The notes below the pieces were generated by a model. The model searched no databases and had not been told where the DNA came from. It saw only the letters and a program-made list of their open reading frames with translations. From NCBI GenBank assembly GCA_964641395.1, contig CAZXKQ010000007.1, positions 7,815-71,814 on the forward strand: a DNA stretch of 64,000 nt, given 5' to 3'. Each line of letters begins with the position of its first letter. Position 1 is the first letter of the stretch. This stretch comes from an uncultured Phascolarctobacterium sp. (GTDB lineage: Bacteria > Bacillota > Negativicutes > Acidaminococcales > Acidaminococcaceae). Positions 24,923 through 40,024 of this stretch are shown one piece after another. The translations under genes were made by a program, and so were the position numbers.

Positions 24923-25047
24923 GCAGCGCTCAGCTCCTTCTCATCCTTCTCGTCTTACTCAACCTTCTCAACCTCATCCCCTGCCGCCCCTGGGGCCTGG
25001 CAGGCCGGCTAGGGCGGCACGGGGTACTTGCAAGAGGAACCTAGGGC

Positions 25048-25803
25048 TTAACCAAAGATGGCCTTGGTCAGGAAGTAGAAGATAGAGGGGAAGGTCAGGC
25101 AGCCAGAGCCGGTGTAGAAGGTGGCAGTCATGGCTGCGTAGGGAACCAGCTTAGGATCTACTGCGGCCATACCGGCAGCAGTGCCAGAGGTGGTGCCTGC
25201 CAACCCGCCGAAGACCATGGCCGACTGAGGATTGTTGATGCCCAGGGGCTTGGCCACGAAGGGGGTGAAGATCATTACTGCCAGGGACTTAACTACGCCG
25301 GCAGCAATGGAGATGGCGATAACCTCGCTAGAGGCGCCTAAGGCCGCACCAGTTACAGGGCCTACTACGAAGGTAGCTACCCCTGCACCGATGGTAACTA
25401 GGTCGACGCTGGAACGATAGCCCAGGGCGAAGGCCACTACCACGCCGGCGATCCAGGAGGTGATGAGGCCGAAGACCAGGGACAGCACGCCTACGATGCC
25501 TACTTTCTTGATCTCCCGCAGGTCGGCGCCGAAGGCGGTAGATACGATGGCGAAGTCACGGAACATAGCGCCGCCCATCAGGCCGATGCCAGCGAAGAGG
25601 GGGATGGTGGCGATACCCTTGGAGCCGCCGCCGATATAGGCCATTACCAGGCCGAAGAGGATGGCTACCGCGCTGCCGTGGATACGGCCCTTGGACAGCC
25701 CTGCCAGCTTATAAGCGATTAAGTTGGCGATGGCGATAATAACGAAAGCGGTAATCAAACCGTTTGACATTAAAACTTTGCCAAACATCGCACCGAAGTT
25801 CAT
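25048..25803 (-). CDS. madM: Malonate transporter subunit MadM
   Basis: 251 aa polytopic membrane protein. Its size, its position after madL and its glycine-rich TM pattern fit MadM. Confidence 0.8.
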   Translation of the reverse strand: MNFGAMFGKVLMSNGLITAFVIIAIANLIAYKLAGLSKGRIHGSAVAILFGLVMAYIGGGSKGIATIPLFAGIGLMGGAMFRDFAIVSTAFGADLREIKKVGIVGVLSLVFGLITSWIAGVVVAFALGYRSSVDLVTIGAGVATFVVGPVTGAALGASSEVIAISIAAGVVKSLAVMIFTPFVAKPLGINNPQSAMVFGGLAGTTSGTAAGMAAVDPKLVPYAAMTATFYTGSGCLTFPSIFYFLTKAIFG

Positions 25804-25822
25804 AATGATACCTCCTATCTAC

Positions 25823-26179
25823 TTATTTCTTAGCAAACGAGCTGAGCACGGGTATCAGCAGGAAGGCCAGGGCGGAGCCTAACAGGCCGCCTAAGAAGGC
25901 TACGATGCCGCCGGAAACGGCTGCTGCTACGTTCTGAATGGAGCTCATCGCTACTACGATAGGAATGTACATTGCGGACCAGAAGGCGATGCCCTCTTGG
26001 GACTTCTTGTCCAACCAGCCGGCGTCGATGCCCTTGTTGCTCAAAAGGATCAGGAAGAGCATGGCAAAGCCTACGCCGCCGATGTTGGCCTTAACCCCCA
26101 GCAGGGCGCCTAGCACATCGCCGATATACATGCCAGTTAGATAGCAGAAAGCTAGCAAACCTACACCATAAATTACCAT
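25823..26179 (-). CDS. madL: Malonate transporter subunit MadL
   Basis: Start MVIYGVGLLAF is preceded by AAGGAGAG (the track start lies 12 codons upstream). 118 aa, 4 TM; pairs with madM. Confidence 0.8.
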   Translation of the reverse strand: MVIYGVGLLAFCYLTGMYIGDVLGALLGVKANIGGVGFAMLFLILLSNKGIDAGWLDKKSQEGIAFWSAMYIPIVVAMSSIQNVAAAVSGGIVAFLGGLLGSALAFLLIPVLSSFAKK

Positions 26180-26294
26180 AATAAATCTCTCCTTAGTACA
26201 ATTTTTTATTATCACCGCCCAGGCCTAGGGGTAGGCCCAGGCGGCGAAACAACTAAAGGGATTAATATGCGGCTCTTAGGAAACTTGTTTCAGC

Positions 26295-26504
26295 TTATTC
26301 CACAACGGCCAGGACGGTGCCGGCGCTAACCCGGTCACCAGGCTGTACCTTGTACTCCTTAACCACGCCGGCTACGGGAGAGGGAACCAGCTGTTTCATC
26401 TTCATAGCTTCCATGACGATCAAAACGTCCTTAACGTTTACCTTGTCGCCAACTTGCTTCTCAAAACGAACGATCTTGCCAGGTACGCGGGATTTAATTT
26501 CCAT
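26295..26504 (-). CDS. madF: Biotin carboxyl carrier protein (biotinyl domain), distal copy
   Basis: 69 aa, MEIKSRVPGKIVRF...VMEAMKMKQLV...VLAVVE, with the EAMKM biotinylation motif. AAGGAGA RBS. The track ORF adds 8 spurious N-terminal codons. Confidence 0.88.
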   Translation of the reverse strand: MEIKSRVPGKIVRFEKQVGDKVNVKDVLIVMEAMKMKQLVPSPVAGVVKEYKVQPGDRVSAGTVLAVVE

Positions 26505-26538
26505 AATGCTATCTCCTTTGCTACACAAACCCTGAGGC

Positions 26539-26748
26539 TTACTCTACAACGGCCAGGACGGTGCCGGCGCTAACCCGGTCACCAGGCTGTACCTTGTACT
26601 CTTTAACTACGCCAGCTACGGGAGAGGGAACTAATTGTTTCATCTTCATAGCTTCCATGACGATCAAAACGTCCTTAACGTTCACTTTGTCGCCCACTTG
26701 TTTCTCGAAACGAACGATTTTGCCAGGTACACGAGATTTGATTTCCAT
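26539..26748 (-). CDS. madF: Biotin carboxyl carrier protein (biotinyl domain), proximal copy
   Basis: 69 aa, amino-acid sequence identical to the 26295..26504 product. AAGGAGA RBS. Confidence 0.88.
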   Translation of the reverse strand: MEIKSRVPGKIVRFEKQVGDKVNVKDVLIVMEAMKMKQLVPSPVAGVVKEYKVQPGDRVSAGTVLAVVE

Positions 26749-26762
26749 AATGCATGTCTCCT

Positions 26763-27449
26763 TTACTTTAAATATTCCAGCGTGTCCGCTTTGGACAGCA
26801 GTTGGACGTCTTCCATGCTCTTCCCTAACACCGTGCTGGTGTCCATGAAGAGCTCGACCAGCTTCACCCCGTAACCATTGGGCAGGTCCACCTCAAAGTC
26901 CAGACTCACTCCTAAGGAGGAGTGGCGGGCCTTGCTGTACAGCTCTTGCAAGCCTTCCAGGGGGGCGGACTGCACCAAGATGTCCAGGTCGGAAGCATCG
27001 TCAGTATAGGGCAGGCCGGTGGCCAGCTCCAAGGCGGCGGAGCCTAGGATGCCCACTTGCAAGCCTAGATCCACAGCTAGCTCAAAGACATTGGCGGCGG
27101 CCTCCAGGCAGTGGTTGCGGGGGGTCCAGTCCTCCTGGCCGTAGACCCGGCCCTGGAGCAGCTCGTAGGGGGTCACTACGGCCTCGATGGCTGCTTCCTG
27201 GGCGTAGGCCGGCAGCCGCAGCCGCTGCTCCTCGACCCGTCCGTAGTGGACGAAGCCCAGGGGGACGGCCTGGGGCCGTTCCGGGGCCCGGCGCATAATG
27301 CCCGGTATGTCGGTGGGGCTCAGCAGCACCTCCCGCACCATGGCCAGGAAGGCCCCGCTGTAATGGGGGGCTGCCTCCTGGTAGATGGCCCGGCGGCCTG
27401 CCTCTGTCACATAGGCTAGGTTGTGTCTCTTTAGCTTCGCTTTGTCCAT
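26763..27449 (-). CDS. mdcG: Malonate decarboxylase holo-ACP synthase (phosphoribosyl-dephospho-CoA transferase, MdcG family)
   Basis: 228 aa. GILGSAALELATGLPYTDDASDLDILV is the nucleotidyltransferase-like MdcG core (GS...TG......SDLDL). Confidence 0.8.
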   Translation of the reverse strand: MDKAKLKRHNLAYVTEAGRRAIYQEAAPHYSGAFLAMVREVLLSPTDIPGIMRRAPERPQAVPLGFVHYGRVEEQRLRLPAYAQEAAIEAVVTPYELLQGRVYGQEDWTPRNHCLEAAANVFELAVDLGLQVGILGSAALELATGLPYTDDASDLDILVQSAPLEGLQELYSKARHSSLGVSLDFEVDLPNGYGVKLVELFMDTSTVLGKSMEDVQLLSKADTLEYLK

Positions 27450-28531
27450 ACTGGGTCCGCCTTGCTGTTTTGTTGGTAATCCAGTTGGGCCTGCACCAAG
27501 TCGTCGAAGAACTTGGTCTTAGAAGGCTGGTCTAGCACATAGCCTGGCTGCTCCCGGCCGCTGGCTATGTAGTCGGGCCGCAGTTCCAGGATGGTCCGGG
27601 GAGCCTTCAATACTACGTCAGGGGCTATCTTCACCACCCTGCCCTTGATCCGCAGGATGGTGCGGGCTACCCGGCCCAGGGTGGTCTGGGAGGCCAGCTT
27701 GCTGGCCTTCACGATCACCTCGAACTCCGGATAGGTCCGCTCCCTTCGGTAGGTGATGATGGAGCCGGAGCGGTTGCAGACATGGCCGCTGCTGCTGACG
27801 GGGAAGCTGTCCCCCATAGGCAGGCCGCCTACCACCAGCTCGTAGAGCCCCTTGTTCCCCGGCAGGGGCAGCAGCTCCACGTCCTCCCGCAGAGGCACCC
27901 CGTCCAGGGCCAGCCAGCCGAACTCCTGGCAGCCGTACAGGTCGTGGACCTCTGCCTGCAGCACCTTCTGGGCGATGGGCAGCAGCTCTAGGTCCAGGGG
28001 AGTGCCGGCAGTGAGGAGGATGAGGCCCTGGGGCAGCTCGCCGGCCACCCCCATGTGCACCGCGTCCTCCAGGGCCGCCCGCAGGAAGGAGCTCTCCCCT
28101 ACCACCACCCGGGGCTGCTGTTCGTAGAGGGCGGCCAAGAAGGCGTCCCGGCTGGAGCGGATCAAGAAGGACCACTCCAAGCCGTAGGCCCGCAGGGCCT
28201 CCCCGGCGAAAACGTTCACCAAGGGGGGGTAGGTCACCACCAGCCTGTCCCCCGGCCTCACCCCAGCCCGCCGCAGGGCCTCCTGGGAGGCTGCCAGCCG
28301 GGCCGGCAGCTCCGCATGGGTGATGCCTACGATGTTCTGGAAGGCCGAGGAACCGGTAGTGAAGGTGAGATAGCTTAGGTTGAGGGGGGTATGGACTTCC
28401 TCAATAACGTGAGCCGCCGTAGGGCCGGCTATGCCCTTGTCCGCCAAGGAGCGGCGGGGCATTTCCCCCATGGTGGGGGCAGAGCCGAAGTCTTTGACTA
28501 ATGCGCTTATTTCTTGCAGGATGCTGGCCAT
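27431..28531 (-). CDS. madH: Adenylate-forming ligase, probably the MadH-type acetate--[ACP-SH] ligase
   Basis: 366 aa. LTFTTGSSAFQNIV is a degenerate AMP-binding T[ST]G[ST]TG motif. The position between madD and mdcG corresponds to madH of the Malonomonas cluster. Function is inferred from context. Confidence 0.6.
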   Translation of the reverse strand: MASILQEISALVKDFGSAPTMGEMPRRSLADKGIAGPTAAHVIEEVHTPLNLSYLTFTTGSSAFQNIVGITHAELPARLAASQEALRRAGVRPGDRLVVTYPPLVNVFAGEALRAYGLEWSFLIRSSRDAFLAALYEQQPRVVVGESSFLRAALEDAVHMGVAGELPQGLILLTAGTPLDLELLPIAQKVLQAEVHDLYGCQEFGWLALDGVPLREDVELLPLPGNKGLYELVVGGLPMGDSFPVSSSGHVCNRSGSIITYRRERTYPEFEVIVKASKLASQTTLGRVARTILRIKGRVVKIAPDVVLKAPRTILELRPDYIASGREQPGYVLDQPSKTKFFDDLVQAQLDYQQNSKADPVWTKRS

Positions 28532-28555
28532 ACTACCCCTGTTTCCTCCTTAAGC

Positions 28556-29446
28556 TTAAGCGTTGAGATACTTGTCAGCCACAGCGGCGAACTCTTCGTT
28601 CATCTTGGCGATGGCCTTCAGCCGCTGTACCCGGCCGCCCCGCTGGTCGCCTAAGAGGCCGCGGCCCCAGGGGCCTAGCTTCTCGTACTCGCCGGCGGCC
28701 TTCAGGGCTGCCACCTCTTTCACATGCTTGGCGATGACCGGCCGCATGTCTTCTACCTTCTCCACGATCTCCTGCACGCCGCCTAGGTTGTAGAAGAAGT
28801 CTACGCCGGGGGCGAAGACCGGGTTAACCTTGGACAGCTCTTCCAGGCGCTCGATGTCCATCTTGGTGATACGGGAGATGGAGGTGATAGGCATTACGTG
28901 GATCATGGTGCCGAAGTCCTTGGAGAGGGCCAGGATGTGGTCGGCCTGGAGGCCGTGGCACAGGAAGGCGCCGGAGATGGCACGGCCGATAACCATGGCG
29001 ATAACCGGATGGCCGGCCTTGCGGGCTTCAGCCAGGGCCAGCTGGTAGCCGCCGGTGGACTTGTTCATGCCGGCGATCTCTTCCATCTTGCCAGGGCCGT
29101 TGCCTGGGGTGTCGACGATGAGGATCAGGGGCCGTTTCTCTGCCAGGGGCTTGTCAGCATCGGCTTCCATGCTGCGATAAACAGCGGTAGCCATCTTGTA
29201 GCCCTCTTCCAGGCCGATTACGCCGCCGAAAACTACTGGGAAGCGCTCGTTGAAGGCGTACGCGTCGTTGGCGATAACGGTGCAGGTGGTGCCCTCTAAC
29301 TTAGCGGTACCTACTACGCTGCCAGGACCGTACTCAGGATCGAAGTCTGCATCGCCTACTTTGTTCTCTACGAAAGTGCCCTCGTCCACAATCATCTCGA
29401 TTGCGTCACGACCGCGGCCTATCATAGTGTTGTCCATTTCATCCAT
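28556..29446 (-). CDS. madD: Malonate decarboxylase carboxyltransferase subunit (MadD / MdcE-like)
   Basis: 296 aa. Crotonase-superfamily carboxyltransferase alpha-type fold (PLILIVDTPGNGPG, VIGRAISGAF). Confidence 0.85.
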   Translation of the reverse strand: MDEMDNTMIGRGRDAIEMIVDEGTFVENKVGDADFDPEYGPGSVVGTAKLEGTTCTVIANDAYAFNERFPVVFGGVIGLEEGYKMATAVYRSMEADADKPLAEKRPLILIVDTPGNGPGKMEEIAGMNKSTGGYQLALAEARKAGHPVIAMVIGRAISGAFLCHGLQADHILALSKDFGTMIHVMPITSISRITKMDIERLEELSKVNPVFAPGVDFFYNLGGVQEIVEKVEDMRPVIAKHVKEVAALKAAGEYEKLGPWGRGLLGDQRGGRVQRLKAIAKMNEEFAAVADKYLNA

Positions 29447-29464
29447 CTTCGTTACCTCCTCGCT

Positions 29465-30424
29465 TTAGGGGCGTACCCTGCGTTTAACGACTTTCAGGAA
29501 TTCCTCGGTAGTCAGTTCGGGGAGTTCAGCCGGGTTCTCGTTGCCGTAGTACTTCCACAGGTCCATGGAATCCTTGGGCTGCATATCGCCTACCAGCTTA
29601 ACCAGGCCTTGCTGCTCCTGCACTAGCTTCAGGGAGCCGATGCGGCGCATAGCTTCGATCTCTTCCATGCTCTTGCCGGCTACGTCGGCCAGGGCGGCGT
29701 GGAAGGCGCCGATCTGATCCTCTACCAGGTAGTTGCAGTCGCCGATGATGTATTTGTGCTTGGCGCCGGTGGTGCGGTATACCAGGGCCTTGTTGGAAGC
29801 GTCGAACTCTTCCTTGCCCATCTCCTGCTCGATAACCTCAGGACCGGTGAGGCCGATACGGCCCTCCTCGTTCATGATGATTACGTCAGTGGCGGCGGCT
29901 ACGAAGCCCATGCCGCCGAAGCAGCCCACCTTGGAGCCTACTACGGACACTACAGGGAGTTTCTTGCGGCAGTCTTGGAAGGCGTCCATAACCTCTGCAT
30001 GGGCCAGCAGGCCGGCATTGGCCTCGTGGAGGCGTACGCCGCCGGTCTCGAAGGAGATGACCACCATGGGACGGCGCTCTGCGTAATCCTCGGGATGGGC
30101 GGCCTTGATCTCCTCAGCAGCCTTCAGGGCCAGGCGGATGGAGCCTACCATCTTGGCGCCGTTCACCTCGCCGATGGCGCCGCCGATGAACTTGCCTTCC
30201 ATGGAGATTACGAAGACAGGGTGCTTGCCGATGAGGCCGACGCCGGTAACGGTGCCGTCATCGAACTCTACAGCGGTGCCCAGTACTGGCAGATGGGGGC
30301 TCATGAAGCGGTCTAGGGGCCCTAACAGTTCGGTAAAGCTACCCTTATCCACCATGCCGATGGCCCGTTCCCGAGCATTGGCATCAAAGAAACTGCTGGT
30401 CTCTAACTCATTCCAGGATTTCAT
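29465..30424 (-). CDS. madC: Malonate decarboxylase carboxyltransferase subunit (MadC / MdcD-like)
   Basis: 319 aa. Carboxyltransferase beta-type fold (GGAIGEVNGAKM, ETGGVRLHEANAGL). Confidence 0.85.
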   Translation of the reverse strand: MKSWNELETSSFFDANARERAIGMVDKGSFTELLGPLDRFMSPHLPVLGTAVEFDDGTVTGVGLIGKHPVFVISMEGKFIGGAIGEVNGAKMVGSIRLALKAAEEIKAAHPEDYAERRPMVVISFETGGVRLHEANAGLLAHAEVMDAFQDCRKKLPVVSVVGSKVGCFGGMGFVAAATDVIIMNEEGRIGLTGPEVIEQEMGKEEFDASNKALVYRTTGAKHKYIIGDCNYLVEDQIGAFHAALADVAGKSMEEIEAMRRIGSLKLVQEQQGLVKLVGDMQPKDSMDLWKYYGNENPAELPELTTEEFLKVVKRRVRP

Positions 30425-30426
30425 TC

Positions 30427-30753
30427 TTACTCAGCCTCCTCTTGTTGTGCTTCTGCCAGGGCCTGACGCAAGCGCATGTACACTACGATGGGGGTGGCGT
30501 TGTCATCGTTGATCTCGATGCTGATGTTGCCTACGCCGGTATCGTTGACGAATTTGGCCAGCATCCGCTCCCAAACTTGGTCGAAGCCTTTAACGGGGGT
30601 GATGACCTTGGCCTTCACGTCGCCGCCGAGGTCCTTCTTCTCCATCAATACTTCCAGGTCGCCGCTGCCGGTCACCCCTAGGTGGGACCAAGCCTTGGCA
30701 ATGCCTTGGGTAGCTTCGGATTTGAAAGAAAATTCTAAAGTTTGTAATGCCAC
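30427..30753 (-). CDS. madE: Malonate decarboxylase acyl carrier protein (delta subunit)
   Basis: 108 aa. HLGVTGSGDLEVLM contains the conserved Ser that carries the 2'-(5''-phosphoribosyl)-3'-dephospho-CoA group. GTG start after GAGGAGGAG. Confidence 0.88.
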   Translation of the reverse strand: MALQTLEFSFKSEATQGIAKAWSHLGVTGSGDLEVLMEKKDLGGDVKAKVITPVKGFDQVWERMLAKFVNDTGVGNISIEINDDNATPIVVYMRLRQALAEAQQEEAE

Positions 30754-30768
30754 TTTACTCTCCTCCTC

Positions 30769-32442
30769 TTACCAGTTCCTGAATTTAGCAGGCGGATTGT
30801 AAAGACCGCCAGACCATTCTACCAAGTCATGAACGTTCTTGGCTGCCAGCATGGACCGAGTGGCCTTGGTGATGTCGATGCCCAGGTCGGCCGGAGTCTT
30901 GATGATGCCGGCTTCCCGCAGGCGTTTGGTCTCCTTGGGATCGGCCTTCAGGCCTACTTCGGTGAAGCCTGCGATGCCCCGGATGGCGGCGGTGCGCTCG
31001 TCCATGGTGCGGCACTTGTGCAGGTAGGCAATGCCTTCCTCGGTGATGACGTGGGTCAGGTCGTCGCCGTAGATCATAACCGGCTCAATGGCCAGGTTGG
31101 CGTTCTTAGCCAGCTTGAAGGCGTCCAGCTCCTCTACGAAGCCAGGGGCCAGCTTCTCCCGGAAGGTCTCGGCCAGCTGTACTACCAGCCGTTTGCCCCG
31201 GTGTACAGGGCCCCACATCTGCTCCTTGATGCCGTACTCTTCGCCGCATTTCAGCCAGGCGTAGGAGGAATGACGACGGCCCTTAGGATCGCAGCCCATG
31301 TTGGGGGCGCCGCCGAAGCCTGCTACCCGGTTGGCGGTAGCGGTGGAGGAGTTGCCGTAGGGGTCGATCTGCAGGGTGCCGCCGATGAACATATCGATGG
31401 CATAGTGGCCTGCAGTCTGGGAGAAGGCCCGGTTGGAACGCATGGAGCCGTCAGGCCCTACGAAGAAGATGTCGCTGCGGGCGGCTACATAGTCTTCCAT
31501 GCCCAGCTCGCCGCCGAAGCAGTGAACCGACTCTACCCAGCCGGTCTCGATGGCGGGGATGAGGGAGGGATGGGGGTTGAGGATGAAGTTCTTGCAGATC
31601 TTCCCCTTCAGGCCCAGCTGCTCGCCGTAGGTGGGCAGCAGCAGCTCGATGGCGGCGGTATCGAAGCCGATGCCGTGGTTCATGGACTCTACCTGGTACT
31701 CCCCGTAGATGCCCTTGATGGCCATCATGCCCTTCAGTACCTGGGCGTCGGTGATGAGGGCCGGGTCGCGGGTGAAGAGGGGCTCGATATAGAAGGGTTT
31801 GGGAGACTGGATGACAAAGTCTACCCAGTCGGCAGGAATGTCCACCCGGGGCAGCTTGTCCACGATCTGGTTAACCTGCACTACTACGATGCCTTGGCGG
31901 AACTTGGTGGCTTCCACGATGGCAGGAGTATCCTCAGTGCTGAAGCCGGTGAAGAGGTTGCCGTCCCGGTCGGCCATGGTGGCGGCTACCAGGGCTACCT
32001 TAGGAGTCAGATCCAGGAAGTAACGGCCATACAGCTCTAGGTAGGTGTGGATGGCGCCTAGCTCTAGCTTGCCAGACTGGAGGAACTCGGCGATGCGGCC
32101 GGCCTGGGGGCCGGAGAAGGACATGTCCAGCTTCTTGGCGATGCCTTTTTCGAACACGTCCAGGTGCTCAGGCAGGGTCAGTACCGACTGAACCATGTGC
32201 AGATCATGCACCTTGCCCGGATCAACCTGGCACAGGCACTTGGCCAGGAAGTCGGCCTGCTTCTGGTTGTTGCCCTCGATGTTGACCTTGTCAAAAGGCT
32301 TGATCACGGTCTCCAGCAAGGCGACTGCGTCCTTGGCATCCACGATCTTGCCTTCCTTAACCAGCGGAGCTGCTGCGCTAAGGCGGGCCAGGGTGTCTTT
32401 CTTGCGAGTATCCCACTCACGAGTGACTTTTTGAAACTCCAT
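30769..32442 (-). CDS. madA: Malonate decarboxylase alpha subunit (acetyl-S-ACP:malonate ACP transferase)
   Basis: 557 aa; long collinear identity blocks with MdcA as I recall it (EGNNQKQADFL, IGAIHTY.ELY, FYIEPLFTRDP, LNPHPSLIPAIE.GWVESVHCFG, AGFGGAPNMG). Confidence 0.93.
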   Translation of the reverse strand: MEFQKVTREWDTRKKDTLARLSAAAPLVKEGKIVDAKDAVALLETVIKPFDKVNIEGNNQKQADFLAKCLCQVDPGKVHDLHMVQSVLTLPEHLDVFEKGIAKKLDMSFSGPQAGRIAEFLQSGKLELGAIHTYLELYGRYFLDLTPKVALVAATMADRDGNLFTGFSTEDTPAIVEATKFRQGIVVVQVNQIVDKLPRVDIPADWVDFVIQSPKPFYIEPLFTRDPALITDAQVLKGMMAIKGIYGEYQVESMNHGIGFDTAAIELLLPTYGEQLGLKGKICKNFILNPHPSLIPAIETGWVESVHCFGGELGMEDYVAARSDIFFVGPDGSMRSNRAFSQTAGHYAIDMFIGGTLQIDPYGNSSTATANRVAGFGGAPNMGCDPKGRRHSSYAWLKCGEEYGIKEQMWGPVHRGKRLVVQLAETFREKLAPGFVEELDAFKLAKNANLAIEPVMIYGDDLTHVITEEGIAYLHKCRTMDERTAAIRGIAGFTEVGLKADPKETKRLREAGIIKTPADLGIDITKATRSMLAAKNVHDLVEWSGGLYNPPAKFRNW

Positions 32443-32489
32443 TACGGTCTCTCCTTTCTGAACTATAAAAACTCCTTAATCTAAGAACC

Positions 32490-32540
32490 GCAAAAAAGCA
32501 AAAGAGAGACCTAGGCGGGTGGTGCCGCTTATTCTCTCTC
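32490..32540 (-). terminator. Intrinsic terminator between the hutP-like gene and madA (T3)
   Basis: Minus strand GAGAGAGAATAAGCGG-caccac-CCGCCTAGGTCTCTC (outer AGAGAGA/TCTCTCT stem, inner GCGG/CCGC stem, internal loop), followed by TTTTGCTTTTTT. Confidence 0.5.
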
Positions 32541-32580
32541 ATATGCCACTATGAAGTTGTGGAATAGCTGCCTCTTGCGG

Positions 32581-33027
32581 TTAGATGTGCATAATACCCA
32601 GTCCCGCCCGCTCATGATTAGTCATGTAGTGGAGGGCGGATAGGCCGAACATGGCCACTGCCAGCCAGTGCTCGTCCCTGGCGATGACCACCTTCATGGC
32701 CAGGCTGCTGGTACGGCTGACGCTGATCAGTATGCCCTTCTTGGCCTCTTCGGTGGCGTGGACCAGGGCGTGGATCTCGTTGCTCTGCTTGGCGATGATG
32801 CCGCCGTTGAGGCCGGCGCCTACCACCGCCTTGATGACCTTTTCATCGAACTCGTTAAAGCTGTTCCTGGCACCGACTTCGGTAACCACCACCCTGTAAC
32901 CCAGCCGCACAGCCGCATCCTTCAGCCGCTGCTCGTCCAGCAGGGTCTTGCTCAAGGCGATGAGCATAGCTGCAGAGCCTACGCCTCTGATACTATTGGT
33001 GATAAAATCTGAGGTACTGGTACTCAT
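32581..33027 (-). CDS. HutP-family RNA-binding (antiterminator-type) protein
   Basis: 148 aa from ATG 33027 (GGAGGAG RBS; the track ORF carries a 67-codon false extension). Collinear with B. subtilis HutP: EIHALVHATEEA / ESHALYHATMEA, HWLAVAMFG / DWIAVSLYG, and C-terminus NHERAGLGIMHI / EHETFGVGINHI. Confidence 0.85.
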   Translation of the reverse strand: MSTSTSDFITNSIRGVGSAAMLIALSKTLLDEQRLKDAAVRLGYRVVVTEVGARNSFNEFDEKVIKAVVGAGLNGGIIAKQSNEIHALVHATEEAKKGILISVSRTSSLAMKVVIARDEHWLAVAMFGLSALHYMTNHERAGLGIMHI

Positions 33028-33122
33028 AGTAGCATGCTCCTCCCCGCCGTCAGGCGGCTGAATGTGAGGGCGGCGCTTGCTCAGAAGCCGGCCAGGCTCT
33101 AGGCCGGGCTGGCGCTTCTCAG

Positions 33123-33863
33123 TCAACGCAGCTTGATTTCGCCAAAGTTGAAGGTGCGCACAGGGCCTCCCTCCTCCTGGATCAGGATGGCCCCGGCAGG
33201 GTCGATGTCCAGGGCCCTGCCCCGGCACAGCTCCTCCTCATCATCCCAGACCCGGACGCTGCTCCCCAGGGTGCAGTTGAGCTGCCGCCACCGCTCCAGC
33301 ATGGGGGCCGCTCCCTGGGCCAGCCACTCCTCATAGAGGGGGGCGAAGCGCTGCAGGATGGCCTCCAGCACCTGCCGGGGAGCCAGCTTGATGCCGGTCT
33401 CCAGCAGCAGCGAGGTGGCGATGGCAGCCAGGTCCGAGGGAAGGTCCTGGGCTGCGAGGGCTACATTGACGCCGATGCCGATTACCACGTAGTCTATGCC
33501 CGTCTCGTCCAAGGCCAGCTCAGAGAGGATGCCGCACAGCTTCCGCCCCTGCCAGAGGAGGTCGTTGGGCCACTTGATCCGCACCTGGTCCGTGCCGTAG
33601 AGGCTGTTGAGGGCCTCTGCTACCGCAACGCCGGCCAGCAGGGTGAGCTGGGCGGCGCAGTCCGGATTGATAGCAGGGCGCAGGATCAGGGAGAAGTAGA
33701 GGCCGCCCTGGGGGGAGAAGAAGCTTCTGGCCAACCGCCCCTTGCCGCCGCTCTGCCGGGCAGCGACTATGACGGTGCCGTCGGCCGCCCCCTGGGAGGC
33801 GGCAGCCGCGGCAGTGCTATTAGTGGATGCTAGCAGGTCATAAAAGCGTAGTTGGAAATCCAT
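33123..33863 (-). CDS. birA: Biotin--protein ligase, class I (no N-terminal HTH domain)
   Basis: QSGGKGRLARSFFSPQGGLYFS (the GRGRxGR-type biotinyl-AMP loop) and KWPNDLL motifs. About 246 aa from ATG 33863; the track start at 33878 is a TTG. Confidence 0.85.
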   Translation of the reverse strand: MDFQLRFYDLLASTNSTAAAAASQGAADGTVIVAARQSGGKGRLARSFFSPQGGLYFSLILRPAINPDCAAQLTLLAGVAVAEALNSLYGTDQVRIKWPNDLLWQGRKLCGILSELALDETGIDYVVIGIGVNVALAAQDLPSDLAAIATSLLLETGIKLAPRQVLEAILQRFAPLYEEWLAQGAAPMLERWRQLNCTLGSSVRVWDDEEELCRGRALDIDPAGAILIQEEGGPVRTFNFGEIKLR

Positions 33864-33919
33864 GGCTCCACATGCCAAGGCCGCAGCCTAGGCTGCGGCA
33901 GAAAAACTGGGTACTGCCC

Positions 33920-35134
33920 CTATACTTTAACCATGCCGATGGTAGCGATGAAGACGCCGCAGGCGATGGCGGATACGATGACGCCGGCGATGTTAGCGCC
34001 CATGGCTACAGGCATTACTACGGCGAACATGTCTACATCCTCAGCAGCGTGCTGGGCGATCTTGGCGGTAGTAGGTACGCAGGATACGCCGGAAACGCCG
34101 ACTACAGGGTTGAATTCGCCCTTCTTGAACCAGTACACTACCCAGCCGCCCAAGATGCCTACGGCACCGGATACGGTCAAGGCCAGGACGCCGAGGACGA
34201 TTAGAGGAGCTACCTTAGGATTCAACAGGGTGGAGGCTTCGCAGAGGGTGCCCAGCAGGAGGCCCAGCATCAAGGTGCCGCTGTAGAGGAGGGCGCCTTC
34301 CAGCAGGTCCTGGTAGGGAACGATCTCGGCTTCTTTAATAGCCAAACCTAAGAAGAAGCTCATGATAAGGGGAGCAGCCATGGGCAGCAGCAGGCAGAGC
34401 AGGCCGCAGCAAACCAGGATGAAGATGAACTTCTTAGCTTTGGGCACTTCAGGAGCGTCGAAGAGGATGTCCTTGCCGCGATACTTCTCCGGTACCAGGG
34501 CCTTTAACAGCCAGGGATAGCCGGCGTAGGTAAGGGACAGGTAGAGGTAGGCGATGACGCTGATAGGCACGAAGAGGTGGGGTGCCAGCATCAAGGAGGT
34601 AAACAGAACCATGGGGCCGTCAGCGCCGCCGATGGAGGCTACGGCTGCTGCTTCATGGGGGGTCAGGCCTAGGTGAACGCCCAGCACCAGGGTAGCGAAG
34701 GTGCCGCACTCGGCGAAGATGGCGATGATGATACTAGTCCAAGGATTGGCCAGGATGAAGCCGATCTCGCACATAGCGCCTACGCCTAGGAAGACCATGC
34801 AGGCTACCAGGGAGTTAGAGAAGGTCAGGTTGTAGATGGGCTGCAAGAAGTTGACTTGCATAATGTCCACTAGTTCCTTAGGATCGCTGATCAGAGGATC
34901 CAGGAACAGGGTGCCTAGCTTGCCCCCCTCTAAGAAGAGGACGCCGCAGTTGATACAGATCATGCCTATGCCCATGGGCACCATGATCAAGGGCTCCAAC
35001 ACCCGCTTAAAGCCCAGGTAGGCCAGGACGAAGCCGAAGGCCACCAGGAAGATACGGGCGATGGCGATGGTGGGTTCTTGCACCAAGAGGGATGCAATAC
35101 CAGGGAATAACTCAGCTACAAAAGATGCATCCAT
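33920..35134 (-). CDS. madB: Na+-translocating carboxybiotin decarboxylase, beta (membrane) subunit (OadB/GcdB/MadB family)
   Basis: 404 aa polytopic protein; SIGGADGPMVLF and other OadB-family blocks. Confidence 0.92.
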   Translation of the reverse strand: MDASFVAELFPGIASLLVQEPTIAIARIFLVAFGFVLAYLGFKRVLEPLIMVPMGIGMICINCGVLFLEGGKLGTLFLDPLISDPKELVDIMQVNFLQPIYNLTFSNSLVACMVFLGVGAMCEIGFILANPWTSIIIAIFAECGTFATLVLGVHLGLTPHEAAAVASIGGADGPMVLFTSLMLAPHLFVPISVIAYLYLSLTYAGYPWLLKALVPEKYRGKDILFDAPEVPKAKKFIFILVCCGLLCLLLPMAAPLIMSFFLGLAIKEAEIVPYQDLLEGALLYSGTLMLGLLLGTLCEASTLLNPKVAPLIVLGVLALTVSGAVGILGGWVVYWFKKGEFNPVVGVSGVSCVPTTAKIAQHAAEDVDMFAVVMPVAMGANIAGVIVSAIACGVFIATIGMVKV

Positions 35135-35265
35135 TATTGCTCGCCTCCTTCACTACTCTTAGAGCCGCCCATGAGCTTGTTCAACAAGACGACGATGGCG
35201 ATCATGAAGAGGGCGATCGCCGCTGTGAACGCGTAAGAGAATAGTGCGTAAATCTCAACGCTCAT
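35134..35265 (-). CDS. Small single-TM protein, OadG-like (decarboxylase gamma subunit candidate)
   Basis: Not in the track (43 aa): MSVEIYALFSYAFTAAIALFMIAIVVLLNKLMGGSKSSEGGEQ. AAGGAG RBS. Its TAA overlaps the madB ATG (TAATG). Confidence 0.5.
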   Translation of the reverse strand: MSVEIYALFSYAFTAAIALFMIAIVVLLNKLMGGSKSSEGGEQ

Positions 35266-35348
35266 CACAAATTACTCCTTTCGACACTGAAGATTTACTG
35301 GAAAAGACCTGTATATTATTGCCGCCCCAGGTTTCCGGACACCAGGGG

Positions 35349-35388
35349 AAACAAAAATACCCTCTTCCGCACTGTACGGAAAAGGGTA
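35349..35388 (-). terminator. Intrinsic terminator T2 in the mad leader
   Basis: Minus strand TACCCTTTTCCG-tacagtg-CGGAAGAGGGTA (12 bp with one G-U), followed by TTTTTGTTT, 84 nt upstream of the oadG-like start. Confidence 0.6.
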
Positions 35389-35810
35389 CTGGCGCACCAG
35401 GGTTTCGCACCTAAGAGGTCGACCGCTCTACGCTGAAGGCCGCCTCTGCCTTCCTAAGGCTAGGCAGCAGGCTTGTTGGCAGGCTGGCGTCCCAAGCAGG
35501 GGCTGTGTGGGGTGGGCGTACACATTCCGTCACTCGCGGAAACATGTAAAGAGTTAAGACCGTGACCTGACTTTGCTGAAAAGCATCACAGAGGCGTGAC
35601 CGTTGCAGAATTCCACTGCATTCTCACCAGCAGAGCACCTCGGGGTGGGGGCAGGCCACCGTGCCGCAGCTCCGCTGCCGCACTGGAAGGCTCCGCTAAG
35701 CGTCTTAATCACTTTCCTTTATTTTTCCCAACAACTATCCAGCCAACACTCTCTTCACTCGCACCACTTCACTGCCGAACAACCATTGAGATAAGCCAGG
35801 CTCCGTCACC

Positions 35811-35854
35811 AAAACAAAAAAGGAGACTGAATGACTCACGATCACTCAATCTCC
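35811..35854 (-). terminator. Intrinsic terminator T1 in the mad leader
   Basis: Minus strand GGAGATTGAGTGA-tcgtgag-TCATTCAGTCTCC (13 bp with two G-U), followed by TTTTTTGTTTT, about 60-100 nt downstream of the predicted TSS. Confidence 0.7.
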
Positions 35855-35885
35855 ACTATTGGTCATGTCGGTCTCACAGGGGGTA

Positions 35886-35909
35886 GCTCTCTCAGACTCT
35901 CGATCTCTA
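35886..35909 (-). promoter_or_regulatory. Three tandem 8-nt NAGAG-N3 units at the 5' end of the mad leader RNA (candidate protein-binding NAG array)
   Basis: Minus strand TAGAGATC GAGAGTCT GAGAGAGC, read directly. Function is inferred only from the NAG-triplet preference of HutP proteins. Confidence 0.3.
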
Positions 35910-35917
35910 TGGCCCAT

Positions 35918-35946
35918 ATTTTATCTAATAAGTCCCTCCTTGTCAA
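35918..35946 (-). promoter_or_regulatory. Strong sigma-A promoter of the mad leader (TTGACA-17 nt-TAAAAT) with an A/T-rich UP-like element upstream
   Basis: Minus strand TTATTTTTTGCCAAAAAAGCCCTTGACAAGGAGGGACTTATTAGATAAAATATGG. Confidence 0.7.
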
Positions 35947-36009
35947 GGGCTTTTTTGGCAAAAAATAAGGAAAAAGAGAACTAAAGGCAGGGGAAGCCCT
36001 CTCTGGCGG

Positions 36010-37047
36010 CTAGTCCTTCTCTGCCCCTTCTCCTCCGGCCTGGACCAGGTAGGTCCAGCCTCCCTCCTGGCGGATCTTCCCCTCCTTCAGCAGGTGGCCC
36101 AGGGCCCGTTTGAAGGCGGCCTTGGAGAGGTCGAACCTTTGCTTGATGATCTCCGGCGGGGTGCCGTCCCCGTAGGGCATGCTGCCGCCCCGCTGCTGCA
36201 AAAAGGCCTCTAAGCGGCGGGCGTCTAGGTAGAGGGCGTCCTCCTTAGGCGGCCGCAGGGAAGCGTTCACCCGGCCGTCCGGGCGGAGGAAGGTGGCCCG
36301 GCACTGCACCTTCTGGCCGAAGTCCAGCCTGCCCCCCGGCACCTGGTCCCGATGGAGGAAGACTACGTAGCGCTCCTTGGTAAAGAGGAAGAAGCCCTCC
36401 GGCACGATGTTGTAGACGATGCCTTCCAGCCTGTCCCCCACCCGGACGGCGGTGGCAGGCTTGGCGGCCCGCTGCAAGTCTTCCTCCACCCGCATGGTGA
36501 CCGCAGGCCGGCCGCTCTTATCCCGATACAGCTTCACCCACACCAGCTGGCCGGGGCTCACATAGCCCCGCATCTCGCTGTAGGGGAGGAAGACCCCCCG
36601 CTCTCCGCCTAGGTCCACGAAGCCCCCGTCCTTGGTGACGCTGAGGACCTTGGCATAGGTGAGCTGGCCCTCCTTCAGCTTGGGCAGCTTCATGCTGGCC
36701 GTCAAGCGCTTGGCCGGATCCAGGTACAGGTAGACCCGCACCTGCTGGCCCACCTCCACCGGGGCGGTCTGCTGGAAGCGGTGGAGCAGGATGTCGTCAG
36801 AGGTGTTGCCGGTGCCTGCGTCTAAAAAGGCGCCGTTTTCGTCTACCCGGGCCACGGTGAGGGTCACTACGTCCCCCGGCCTGGCGCCGCCGGCCCGCAG
36901 CGGCCCCTCTTCTGTTGTTGTCGGGGCCGGACCTGGGGGAGCAGCCGGCCGCCGGCCCTGCCGCGACCCTCTTCCCTCAGAGGCTGCCGGCCTGGGCCCT
37001 GGGGCCCTGTCCTGGGGTCTGCCGCCCCGCCTCGTTCTCTCCTGCAT
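36010..37047 (-). CDS. cvfB: CvfB/YitL-family S1-like RNA-binding protein with an Arg/Pro/Gly-rich N-terminal extension
   Basis: 345 aa. Repeated S1-like domains and a C-terminal winged helix (FDLSKAAFKRALGHLLKEGKI). The first ~55 residues are low complexity, so the true start may lie further downstream at a non-ATG codon. Confidence 0.82.
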   Translation of the reverse strand: MQERTRRGGRPQDRAPGPRPAASEGRGSRQGRRPAAPPGPAPTTTEEGPLRAGGARPGDVVTLTVARVDENGAFLDAGTGNTSDDILLHRFQQTAPVEVGQQVRVYLYLDPAKRLTASMKLPKLKEGQLTYAKVLSVTKDGGFVDLGGERGVFLPYSEMRGYVSPGQLVWVKLYRDKSGRPAVTMRVEEDLQRAAKPATAVRVGDRLEGIVYNIVPEGFFLFTKERYVVFLHRDQVPGGRLDFGQKVQCRATFLRPDGRVNASLRPPKEDALYLDARRLEAFLQQRGGSMPYGDGTPPEIIKQRFDLSKAAFKRALGHLLKEGKIRQEGGWTYLVQAGGEGAEKD

Positions 37048-37404
37048 CTATTGCTCCTCAGCCGGGCTGTAGGCTTCCGAGGGGGCGTCGGCCCACAGCT
37101 GCTCCAAGTTGTAAAAATCCCGCTCCTCTTCTAAGAAGATGTGGGCCACCACGTCGCCGTAGTCCAACAGCACCCAGCTTCCCTGGTCATAGCCTTCCTT
37201 GTGCAGGGGGTAGAGCCCCTCCTGGGCCAGTTCGTCCTCAATATTGTCCACTATGGCCCGGGTGAGGATGTTATTAGGGGCGCTGCCGATTACGAAGTAG
37301 TCGGTGACCGGGGAGAGCCCCTGTACGTCTAAAATCAAGACATCCGCCGCCTTCTTGGCGTCGGCGTAGTGGGCGATCTTTCTAGCTAGTTCCTTGCTTT
37401 CCAT
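37048..37404 (-). CDS. rsfS: Ribosome silencing factor RsfS
   Basis: 118 aa; DVLILDVQGLSPVTDYFVIGSA and GSWVLLDYGDVVAHIF motifs. Confidence 0.93.
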   Translation of the reverse strand: MESKELARKIAHYADAKKAADVLILDVQGLSPVTDYFVIGSAPNNILTRAIVDNIEDELAQEGLYPLHKEGYDQGSWVLLDYGDVVAHIFLEEERDFYNLEQLWADAPSEAYSPAEEQ

Positions 37405-37451
37405 CTTCTCTAACCTCCTGTGTATGGCTCAGCCTCTCTCTTCTATACCTG

Positions 37452-38570
37452 CTACTGTTCCTTGCCTTCTTTATTCTCCTTACCGTCGGCTTTTTCCTGC
37501 CCTTGGGGGTCTGGCAGGTAGGGTATGCCTAGCTCGTCCAGGCTTTTCCGCACCGACTCCCTGTCCACCGCCCAGTAGCTGATGCCGCTGCTGTCGTCAA
37601 AGCGGCCGTAGAGCATGCAGCTCTTCACCGTGCTGTCGCCAAAAAGCTTGAAGCTGTTGGCCGCCTTCAGCATGGTCAGGGTGTCCAGGTCCGTCTCCAC
37701 GTACTTCTCCAAGGTGGCCAGCAGGCTGCCGATATTGGTCAGGTTCTGGACGGACACCAGCTGCTTGGCGGCCGCCTTGAGGAACTTCTGCTGCCGCTGC
37801 ACCCGGCCTATGTCCCCCAGCTCGTCGCTGCGGAAGCGGACGTACTTCCCCGCCAGCTTGCCGTCCATGTGCTGGGAGCCCTTCTTGATGTCGATCACCA
37901 GGTCTGCGTAGGGATCCTCGTAGTGCATGTCGTTTTCTACGTAGAGGTCCACCCCGCCGATCTGGTCCACCACGTCGATGAAGCCCTGCCAGTTGGCCAG
38001 GGCGTAGTAGTGGACGGGCACTTCCAGCAGCTGCTCCACCGTCTGCTTGGCCATGATGACCCCGCCGAAGGTGTAGGCGGAGTTGATCTTGGAAGGATCC
38101 CGGTGGCCGGGCAGCACTACCCGGGTGTCCCTGGGGATGGAGAGGATGCCCACCTGGTCCCCCTTAGGGTCGAAGCTGAGGAGGAGGATGGCGTCTGTAC
38201 GCTTAGGCTCGCTTTCAGCCGCCTCGCTGTCCCCGTCGTCGATGCCCAGCAGCAGCACGTTGATCCGCTGGTTGAGCCGCTCGGAGCCAGCCATCTTCTG
38301 GCCTAGCTCCGTCTTGGCCCCGGCAGGCTTCTCCCCCTGGCCCATCTGCTGGGCGGCAGGGTGGAGGAGGCCGTAGAGCAGCACGGTGCCCTTGAAGATG
38401 CCCCAGGCCAGGGCCGCTACGATGACCAGGCACAGCACTACCCGGCCCCAGCGCACCTTCTTCCGCACCCGGTGAGGGGGCCTGGGGCCACCCTCCCGCC
38501 CTTCAGGGCGTTCTTCCCGCTTTTCTTCCTGGATCTCTTCCTGTTTTTCGTCCTGCTTGTCTTCGTCCAT
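37452..38570 (-). CDS. LytR-CpsA-Psr (LCP) family cell-envelope phosphotransferase
   Basis: 372 aa. Charged N-terminus, one TM segment, then the LCP core (INVLLLGIDDGD, RTDAILLLSFDP, ILSIPRDT). Confidence 0.88.
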   Translation of the reverse strand: MDEDKQDEKQEEIQEEKREERPEGREGGPRPPHRVRKKVRWGRVVLCLVIVAALAWGIFKGTVLLYGLLHPAAQQMGQGEKPAGAKTELGQKMAGSERLNQRINVLLLGIDDGDSEAAESEPKRTDAILLLSFDPKGDQVGILSIPRDTRVVLPGHRDPSKINSAYTFGGVIMAKQTVEQLLEVPVHYYALANWQGFIDVVDQIGGVDLYVENDMHYEDPYADLVIDIKKGSQHMDGKLAGKYVRFRSDELGDIGRVQRQQKFLKAAAKQLVSVQNLTNIGSLLATLEKYVETDLDTLTMLKAANSFKLFGDSTVKSCMLYGRFDDSSGISYWAVDRESVRKSLDELGIPYLPDPQGQEKADGKENKEGKEQ

Positions 38571-38572
38571 GC

Positions 38573-39214
38573 CTATCGCTCCGTCCCGCCTTCCCCCGGC
38601 TCCCCGCCTGCCTCCTTGGCGGCCTTGGCCCCCTTGGCGGCTTTAAGGGTTGAGAGCAGCTGGTTATAACCGGCGATACAGTCAGGGTGGATGAAGCGGC
38701 CGTCGGCCACCAGATGGTTGATAGTGTAGCCGTAGGCGGCCAGCAGGGCCCGGTCCAGATCCTGGAAGCTCAGGCGGCGCACATCCTCCGCCCACTCACA
38801 GTCCCGGCCAGGCTCGATCAAGTCGGCTAGGAAGACCAGCTTGGCCAGGCGGCTCATGTTGGGGGCGCCAGTGGTGTGGTAGCGGATGCCCGCCAGGATC
38901 TCCTCATCCTCCACCCCGTACTTAGTCCTAGCATAGTAGGCCCCTAGCTTCTGGTGCAACAGGATGGGCTGCTGCTCCTCGATAGGCTCCAGCGCCAGTC
39001 CCAGCTTTTTCGCCAGGGCGGGGCTGGCCTTGCTGCCCACCTCCCGGCCGCAGTCGTGGAGCAGGGCGCAGACACCCACCTGCTGCTGCTCCGCCGGGCT
39101 TAGGCCGTAGTGGACGGCCAGGGCCCCGGCCGTCTTGTACACCGCCAGGGAGTGCTTGTAGCGCTTAGGTGGCAAGGACTCCTTCAGCAGGGCGGCCATC
39201 GCTTCTATCTCCAT
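38573..39214 (-). CDS. yqeK: HD-domain bis(5'-nucleosyl)-tetraphosphatase YqeK
   Basis: 213 aa; KRYKHSLAVY...LLHDCGRE HD motif. Conserved nadD-yqeK pairing. Confidence 0.88.
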   Translation of the reverse strand: MEIEAMAALLKESLPPKRYKHSLAVYKTAGALAVHYGLSPAEQQQVGVCALLHDCGREVGSKASPALAKKLGLALEPIEEQQPILLHQKLGAYYARTKYGVEDEEILAGIRYHTTGAPNMSRLAKLVFLADLIEPGRDCEWAEDVRRLSFQDLDRALLAAYGYTINHLVADGRFIHPDCIAGYNQLLSTLKAAKGAKAAKEAGGEPGEGGTER

Positions 39215-39215
39215 A

Positions 39216-39824
39216 TTACTCTCCCCTATACAGGCCTGTTCGGTATATATAAGACTCTACAGCGGCAGGCACCAGGCCGGCCAGGCTCTCCCCCCGGGCC
39301 ACCGCCTGGCGGATCTGGGTGCTGGATATGTCGTAGGCAGGGGTGGCCAAGGTCAGGATGCGGCCTGCCCTAGCCGCGGCCAAGAGGGGTCCCAGTCCGT
39401 CTAACTCCTCCTGGTAGCCCGGCCGGCCGGCGGCCACGAAGACGGCCAACTGCAGCTGTTCCTGGATGCAATGCCAGGTAGGCAGCTGGCTGAGGCTGTC
39501 GGCCCCGATGATGAAGTAGAGCTGCCGTCCTGGGTAGAGGCTGCGCAGCTGCCGCAGGCTGTCCACCGTGTAGGACACGCCGGAGCGGCGCAGCTCTATG
39601 TCGCTGAGGGCGAAGAGAGGGTGGCCGGCTATGGCCAGCCGCACCATCTCGTAGCGGGCAGGGGCGGGGGCGCAGCGCAGGCCCTGCTTGTGGGGGGCCA
39701 CTGCCGCCGGCAGGAAGAGCACCTGCTCCAAGCCCAGCTGCTCCGCCACCGCCTGGGCCATGGCCAGATGGCCTAGATGAACGGGGTCAAAGGTTCCCCC
39801 CAGGATGCCTAAACTGCCTGCCAT
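39216..39824 (-). CDS. nadD: Nicotinate-nucleotide adenylyltransferase
   Basis: GILGGTFDPVHLGHL (HxGH) motif. Start taken at MAGSLGILGG after GGAGGCGGAG; the track start at 39839 would be almost leaderless. Confidence 0.92.
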   Translation of the reverse strand: MAGSLGILGGTFDPVHLGHLAMAQAVAEQLGLEQVLFLPAAVAPHKQGLRCAPAPARYEMVRLAIAGHPLFALSDIELRRSGVSYTVDSLRQLRSLYPGRQLYFIIGADSLSQLPTWHCIQEQLQLAVFVAAGRPGYQEELDGLGPLLAAARAGRILTLATPAYDISSTQIRQAVARGESLAGLVPAAVESYIYRTGLYRGE

Positions 39825-39852
39825 GGGCTCCGCCTCCATTAGGTCTCAACTA

Positions 39853-39881
39853 ATTATAACAAGGGCACAGCCATCTTACAA
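39853..39881 (-). promoter_or_regulatory. Sigma-A promoter for nadD-yqeK... (TTGTAA-17 nt-TATAAT, TG-extended)
   Basis: Minus strand CCCTTGTAAGATGGCTGTGCCCTTGTTATAATTAG. Confidence 0.6.
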
Positions 39882-40024
39882 GGGTTTGCAAAATAATCAC
39901 TATCCCGGCCAGGAGGAGCAGGGCCTTGGCCCTGTCCTTGAGATCAAAAACAGTTTTAGGCCTCCTTAGAAAATCTAAGCAGGCCCTTAGGTAGGCTGTG
40001 AGTTTGAGCTTCGGCCGGCCCTCC

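Follow-up and report, generated by a model that had tools for sequence, protein, structure and literature searches.

The 18-nt motif that had been flagged at two terminators of a malonate decarboxylase (mad) operon is, judged from aligned sequences, the core of a longer conserved GA-rich RNA box of about 26 nt. It occurs at 56 terminators distributed over 27 mad clusters of Phascolarctobacterium/Acidaminococcaceae, and all 27 encode a protein of the HutP family. We consider it likely that a ligand-activated, HutP-like antiterminator uses the box as its RNA operator at both terminators, T1 and T3, although binding, ligand and direction of control are inferred. What the analysis shows is the sequence of the box, its conservation, its linkage to hutP and the terminator structures.

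The GA-rich box at terminators of the mad operon

The window, by which we mean the whole stretch of 64,000 nucleotides analysed, comes from a Phascolarctobacterium-like member of the Acidaminococcaceae, and the minus-strand genes in question form a Malonomonas-type, biotin-dependent malonate decarboxylase cluster. The operon runs from a 43-codon ORF through madB (OAD_beta), a biotin ligase gene, a HutP-family gene, madA, madE, madC, madD and a madH-like ligase gene to mdcG. It was compared with 26 orthologous loci taken from species-representative genomes (HutP identity 56-90%). In every one of the 26, the small ORF, madB, birA and hutP are followed by a spacer of 117-187 nt and then by madA-E-C-D-H. 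The order of hutP, intrinsic terminator and structural genes is found here (33027..32581, 32540..32491 and 32442 onwards) as well as in the orthologs. The features that bear on the box are the following.

35835..35860, minus strand: the complete box at T1 (site B), which contains the flagged motif, AAUAGUGGAGAUUGAGUGAUCGUGAG (weight matrix 33.8 bits, rank 1)
35859..35842, minus strand: flagged motif at T1, reading ATAGTGGAGATTGAGTGA
35811..35854, minus strand: terminator T1, a 14-bp hairpin (35854..35822) and U-tract UUUUUUGUUU
33920..35265, minus strand: small 43-codon ORF and madB (OAD_beta), the first genes 3' of T1 and T2
32581..33027, minus strand: hutP-like gene, 148 aa, presumed trans factor (Pfam HutP PF09021, 102 bits)
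32528..32553, minus strand: the corresponding box at T3 (site B), which contains the flagged motif, CAUAGUGGCAUAUGAGAGAGAAUAAG (weight matrix 26.7 bits, rank 2)
32552..32535, minus strand: flagged motif at T3, reading ATAGTGGCATATGAGAGA
32491..32540, minus strand: terminator T3, P1 stem GAGAGAGA/UCUCUCUU around an inner hairpin (32540..32502) and U-tract UUUUGCUUUUUU
30769..32442, minus strand: madA, first gene 3' of T3 (Pfam Mal_decarbox_Al, 961 bits)

On re-reading the sequence, both copies of the motif were found at the positions given in the preliminary description. Their identity, put there at 14 of 18 positions, came to 13 of 18 on recounting (7+4+2). The pattern ATAGTGGNNNNTGAGNGA has two matches in the window, and still two when one mismatch is allowed, whereas none of 100 shuffles reached two; in the complete 1.68-Mb genome it again has two matches. 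Since this pattern was derived from the same two sites, shuffling both 44-nt terminator flanks is the fairer test of chance. With the register left free, 90 of 5000 such shuffles gave a 13/18 match; with the register required to be the same, 4 of 5000 did. The pair of sites by itself is therefore only moderately unlikely, and is suggestive rather than compelling.

These counts leave room for the view that the box has no regulatory role, T1 and T3 being related or duplicated terminators whose GA-rich 5' arms are kept only for pairing with CU-rich 3' arms. Much of the 18-mer does overlap the stem, and GA/CU stems are of low complexity. The evidence that weighs on this view comes from the orthologs. 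We trained a 26-nt weight matrix on distant orthologs, excluding this genome and two close relatives, and T1 (33.8 bits) and T3 (26.7 bits) ranked first and second among about 3.4 million positions of the genome. The third-best position scored 20.0 bits, and its 60-nt 3' flank is without a hairpin plus T-run. The argument that two occurrences are unlikely to be due to chance thus has only moderate force on the pair alone and gains strength once the ortholog matrix is brought in; nor is the motif frequent genome-wide away from terminators, which would have refuted the original proposal.

When the T1 site was aligned together with the 55 other sites on the GAGWGA core, the consensus cAUA-NN-GG-N-GA-YN-GAGWGA-N2-4-GAG was obtained, with an A-rich stretch 5' of it. 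Terminators of both types, T1 and T3, carry the conserved box in the 26 orthologous clusters, so that the other outcome named as refuting the proposal, a lack of conservation in orthologs, did not occur either. Among the 27 loci the box has been kept while the spacer sequence around it has diverged. Nearly all hutP-madA spacers contain A[U/A]A[G/U][U/A]GG-N-GA..GAGAGAG, which enters the terminator with GAGAGAG as its 5' arm (one spacer, that of locus L024, has only a weaker GA-rich variant), and the ortholog leaders carry the same box at the T1-type terminator. The conserved features are AUA, GG, and GA at positions -4, 0, +4 and about +8. Counted from the GAGWGA anchor, the first position of the stem is -7 for sites of the T1 type and 0 for those of the T3 type; the box is thus conserved whatever the register of the stem.

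A box retained only for stem pairing is hard to reconcile with these observations: the unpaired AUA..GG..GA is conserved too, the box is kept although the stem register differs between T1 and T3, inner stems covary freely where P1 does not, other terminators in the same loci are without the box, and T1 and T3 alone score high genome-wide. We regard the absence of any regulatory role as very unlikely.

The positional profile of AG over 51 non-redundant sites showed AG to be universal at +1 only, with no period-7 series. A classical HutP site, with a period-7 XAG series, was ruled out on this ground, which bears out the earlier remark that the spacing is not of the canonical B. subtilis type. 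The motif had also been read as a UAG followed by GAG, triplets of the NAG type recognised by HutP proteins. The UAG is indeed present in the flagged copies, but among the same 51 sites the first triplet may be UAG, UAA, UAU, AAG or GAG, and because the leading UAG is not invariant in the orthologs a strict NAG-triplet code is not upheld.

Terminator structures and the mad leader

T1 and T3 both satisfy the criterion for an intrinsic terminator, namely a G+C-containing hairpin with a U-tract directly after it. T1 folds at -20.3 kcal/mol (z -6.0) and T3 at -20.6 kcal/mol. The motif was said to run into the 5' arm of each stem, and it does so, wholly covering the arm at T1 and ending inside it at T3. 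In the hutP-madA spacers of the orthologs the P1 stem (GAGAGAG/CUCUCUC) is essentially invariant, and the inner hairpin varies freely between species. T3 is in turn enclosed by an outer helix, P0.

32568..32586, minus strand: 5' strand of P0, covering the hutP stop codon
32479..32501, minus strand: 3' strand of P0, formed by the U-tract and the next bases

P0 pairs the last hutP codons and the bases following them with the T3 U-tract and bases beyond it. Compensatory changes support it, CCGCAA/UUGCGG in this genome being replaced by UCAAACA/UGUUUGA, AUCGGAC/GUCCGAU or GUUAGAU/AUCUAAC in orthologs, and most of the duplex energies lie 2-5 standard deviations below those of shuffles. RNAalifold, applied to a MAFFT alignment of the hutP-madA spacers, recovered the invariant P1 stem alone; MAFFT lost the register of the outer helix, and the evidence for P0 is therefore that of per-sequence duplex tests against shuffles. 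In this genome the 113-nt T3 element folds at -38.5 kcal/mol (z -4.2), with AUAGUGG-N-GAU in a 5' internal loop and the remaining part of the box in the terminator 5' arm. P0 (32479-32586, minus strand) is able to form only in read-through transcripts.

We also considered an antiterminator helix between AUAGUGG and CCAC-like segments. Such pairs exist in the fold of the window, but their register is not conserved across orthologs and the candidate was rejected. No promoter-like site was found between T3 and madA, and madA accordingly depends on read-through.

The leader upstream of the small ORF holds further conserved elements.

35918..35946, minus strand: sigma-70-type promoter of the mad leader, TTGACA-17-TAAAAT, 11/12 consensus matches
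35884..35907, minus strand: site A, GA-rich repeats 3' of the -10 box, UAGAGAUC GAGAGUCU GAGAGAGC
35515..35638, minus strand: cobalamin-riboswitch-like aptamer in the T1-T2 interval, diverged here (AdoCbl RF01482, 38.2 bits)
35356..35390, minus strand: terminator T2, with no GA box; GUAUCCUUUUCCG...CGGAAAAGGAUAU conserved in orthologs
35321..35352, minus strand: unexplained hairpin with covarying stems and the invariant 8-nt loop GUCCGGAA

The promoter recurs as TTGACAAA...TATAAT in 23 of the 24 ortholog leaders examined. Site A consists of three 8-nt NAGAG units in this genome and has the consensus YCGAGAGAWUWUGAGAG, whose core, GAGAGA-N4-GAGAG, resembles that of the terminator-proximal box. 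At least three GAG within 40 nt after the -10 box were present in 22 of 23 leaders, as against 2.8% of windows locus-wide. The site lies outside any structure, and its distance to site B, measured from the -10 box to AUA, is 53-105 nt. No obvious site A was seen at T3.

The aptamer match is the only cmscan match in the leader and falls below the gathering score of 50; at the same position four orthologous loci (L007, L012, L015 and L019) reach 46-49 bits on RF00174, for which the gathering score is 31.5. T2 is most likely the expression platform of this cobalamin riboswitch. The preliminary description had remarked that T2 does not show the motif, and we likewise found none at T2 (35390..35356), which is accounted for if T2 belongs, as is most likely, to the riboswitch. 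The leader would then most likely comprise two switches in series, the GA box with T1 followed by the cobalamin riboswitch with T2, and since the two terminators are in series both must be open for the first block to be expressed. One would not expect a malonate decarboxylase operon to be under a B12 switch, which may link the use of malonate to the B12-dependent route from succinate to propionate.

In P. faecium and its relatives (L022, L024 and L026-L028) a second hutP paralog, of 41-53% identity, lies directly upstream of the mad promoter. These loci have no cobalamin riboswitch, and the leaders of L026-L028 contain an extra box-bearing terminator; they represent a different wiring of the same parts. 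Almost every mad leader has the GUCCGGAA hairpin, which lies 49-91 nt ahead of the small ORF and is present whether or not the leader contains a riboswitch.

The HutP-like protein and its linkage to the box

The presumed trans factor scores 102 bits on PF09021 against a cut-off of 25. Against the B. subtilis HutP chains in the PDB it gave 27.6 bits (E 2.7e-5, phmmer), which makes it a distant relative, and a protein homolog search returned 343 relatives, whose names go no further than 'HutP family protein' or 'hut operon positive regulatory protein'. Kumarevel et al. are said to have described in 2005 that H73, H77 and H138 of B. subtilis HutP form a divalent-metal site, and the equivalents of all three are histidine in 31 of 31 unique proteins of the subfamily. 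The L-histidine pocket is reportedly made up of Tyr69, Glu81, Arg88 and Arg98 in the 2005 HutP structure paper, where R88, Y69, E137 and T56 are reportedly ligand and RNA contacts. The positions of Y69 and R88 are deleted in all 31 proteins. The R98 position is occupied by A, S, T or V according to MAFFT, whereas HMMER places an Arg there in the protein of the window. E81 is kept in 27 of the 31, E137 is replaced by Asn in 30 of the 31 and T56 by Gly. The subfamily, on these 31 unique proteins, does not fit the description of an L-histidine pocket. With Tyr69 and the region of Arg88 lost and Glu137 changed to Asn, both the ligand and the reading of RNA probably differ from those of B. subtilis HutP. 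As far as residues alone can tell, this is in keeping with a protein that has retained the fold and the metal site but binds another ligand and reads RNA by another code.

Comparison with the B. subtilis hut system (hutPHUIGM; PDB 1wmq, 1vea and 2gzt) brings out both likenesses and differences. The HutP domain and the three aligned histidines are shared. In both, an intrinsic terminator stands immediately after the regulator gene and ahead of the catabolic genes under control, and in both a purine-rich (xAG/GAG) site starts single-stranded and enters the 5' side of the terminator, within a long structure that extends back to the hutP stop codon. In B. subtilis the terminator structure spans that codon, its 5' site being single-stranded and its 3' site paired (PMC2425495). 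HutP there binds single-stranded RNA with the bases facing the protein, and recognises A and G in two XAG-rich clusters that are joined by a 12-17-nt linker and contain three XAG each, with spacers of 4 nt (PMC2425495). The consensus described here differs in having neither the periodicity of three XAG with 4-nt spacers nor the 12-17-nt linker. The regulated genes here are madA, madE, madC, madD, madH and mdcG instead of those for histidine utilisation, and there is a second checkpoint, T1, upstream of hutP itself.

Another parallel is provided by TRAP. Its binding promotes termination at a site of 11 repeats with 2-3-nt spacers, and its fold is unrelated to that of HutP. As is proposed here, an oligomer (the mtrB product) reads repeated (G/U)AG in a single-stranded leader beside a terminator, that of the Bacillus trp leader (PMC2425495). 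Tandem leader regulators likewise place a protein- or riboswitch-controlled terminator before a second riboswitch, as in the mad leader. To our knowledge, a protein switch of the HutP type combined with a cobalamin riboswitch has not been described, and the literature searched contained no such case.

To follow the box beyond the orthologous loci, a degenerate pattern, ATANNGGNGANNGAGWGA, was scored in 61 relatives, where it has 22 matches. Fifteen of these, in 10 genomes, lie at most 3 kb from a mad-type hutP and on the same strand as that gene; the remaining seven lie elsewhere, a number that matches the six of the reversed-pattern control. All 12 MadA-positive genomes among the 61 have hutP beside madA, and hence no mad cluster without hutP was available for the converse comparison. 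In one lineage (genome G043, locus L043, 294-385), hutP lies 92 nt before madA with neither a U-tract terminator nor a GA box between them; it is the one lineage seen without the T3 checkpoint.

HutP homologs of 49-55% identity were also found in three other Negativicutes families (L038/L059, L041/L060 and L042/L061). No mad genes were present in the fetched flanks of these three loci, apart from an unconfirmed CitF/MadA-like ORF just upstream in G038. The layout in all three families is that of a promoter, a GA-rich leader, hutP, a GA-rich terminator site and a CoA-transferase family III gene. Across the three 13-kb loci every matrix match above 11 bits on the hutP strand adjoins hutP, with matches in the hutP leader in three of three families and at the hutP terminator in two of three. 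Since GA-rich sites persist beside hutP when the cargo is another, the box travels with the regulator and not with the cargo. The CoA-transferase operons suggest a wider dicarboxylate or acyl-CoA regulon of this HutP subfamily.

The same comparison bears on whether the box belongs instead to an independent structured RNA, be it a small riboswitch or a target for another factor, whose link to hutP is mere operon co-inheritance. Its conserved unpaired nucleotides lie in an internal loop that is flanked by an outer helix, which covaries, and an inner stem, which is invariant; this architecture is possible for a riboswitch, and another riboswitch is present in the same leader. Against this, GA-rich sites adjoin hutP each time in operons with different cargo, and cmscan with Rfam 15 (E<=1, positions 24000-40000) gave no covariance-model match at T1 or T3. 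Moreover, what is conserved consists of simple GA repeats, as is typical of single-stranded RNA read by proteins, and repeats of the same type occur after the -10 box, outside any structure. We therefore find an RNA acting without HutP improbable.

This genome has a second HutP-family gene (contig C32:16588-17025, L001; 138 bits on Pfam), which belongs to a different subfamily and lies after a sodium:solute symporter gene at the end of the contig. In most of the relatives examined, paralogs of this type are followed by a plain terminator and then by apparent L-serine dehydratase genes. Neither a GA box at their terminators nor XAG repeats were found. The gene was considered as a canonical control and set aside on account of its different subfamily and of the missing GA box and XAG repeats, and it was used solely as a negative control. 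The paralogs may represent another non-histidine HutP regulon.

The preliminary description had named the motif as the best candidate cis-element for the hutP-like gene product. Its specificity, its conservation and its linkage to hutP support this choice, the function itself being inferred.

Proposed mechanism and its meaning for malonate use

By analogy with B. subtilis HutP, a ligand-activated, metal-bound oligomer would grip the box as it emerges from the polymerase. With the box bound, the 5' arm could not pair, and RNA polymerase would read through T1 and T3. T1 would gate the small ORF, madB, birA and hutP, which would amount to positive feedback on hutP, and T3 would gate madA-E-C-D-H together with the genes that follow. 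The other face of the oligomer may be taken up by site A. Binding, read-through, direction of control and ligand are all inferred here, there being no experimental or transcript evidence. The ligand is probably not histidine and is possibly malonate, which is the obvious candidate. Several observations count against the operator reading: the protein is distant, the spacing is non-canonical, hutP lies behind T1, G043 is an exception and T3 has no site A. As hutP is downstream of T1, induction would need leaky termination.

This last point would be easier to square with negative autoregulation, and the protein might bind the box only to stabilise the hairpin or the outer helix and so promote termination, as a ligand-dependent attenuator or repressor. 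P0 encloses the element, and AUAGUGG lies in an internal loop which such a protein could clamp. We nevertheless think this unlikely. What does not vary in the box is the very sequence of the 5' arm; the RNA bound by B. subtilis HutP is single-stranded (PMC2425495), and a hairpin is normally blocked when its 5' arm is occupied. Induction also fits a catabolic operon in which the regulator gene precedes the genes that are gated.

Antitermination through the box thus remains our preferred reading. A more specific proposal can be made only tentatively, and we hold it to be possible without leaning towards it. The mad-associated proteins would be a HutP subfamily retargeted from histidine to dicarboxylate catabolism, in which the metal site is kept and the remodelled pocket could hold a malonate-Mg2+ chelate. 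Such a protein would read a GAGWGA-centred box without period 7, may wrap sites A and B on its two faces, and would act at two terminators in series with a cobalamin riboswitch. If this holds, the malonate pump would be made only with the inducer present and B12 low, that is, when the B12-dependent route from succinate to propionate is unavailable.

The literature searched reports HutP from a single type of operon, that for histidine utilisation in Bacillus, and nothing relevant was found linking it to malonate; a 2025 review gives HutP for hutPHUIGM in Bacillus only (PMC12591593). With its coordinates, its consensus and dozens of natural variants, the box makes a second HutP regulon directly testable. 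Such a regulon would reveal how a change of ligand and a change of RNA code are both possible within the fold. The hosts are gut anaerobes, Phascolarctobacterium and its relatives, which are notable propionate producers, and the element would also tell how these organisms decide on the use of malonate, a decision apparently integrated with vitamin B12 status.
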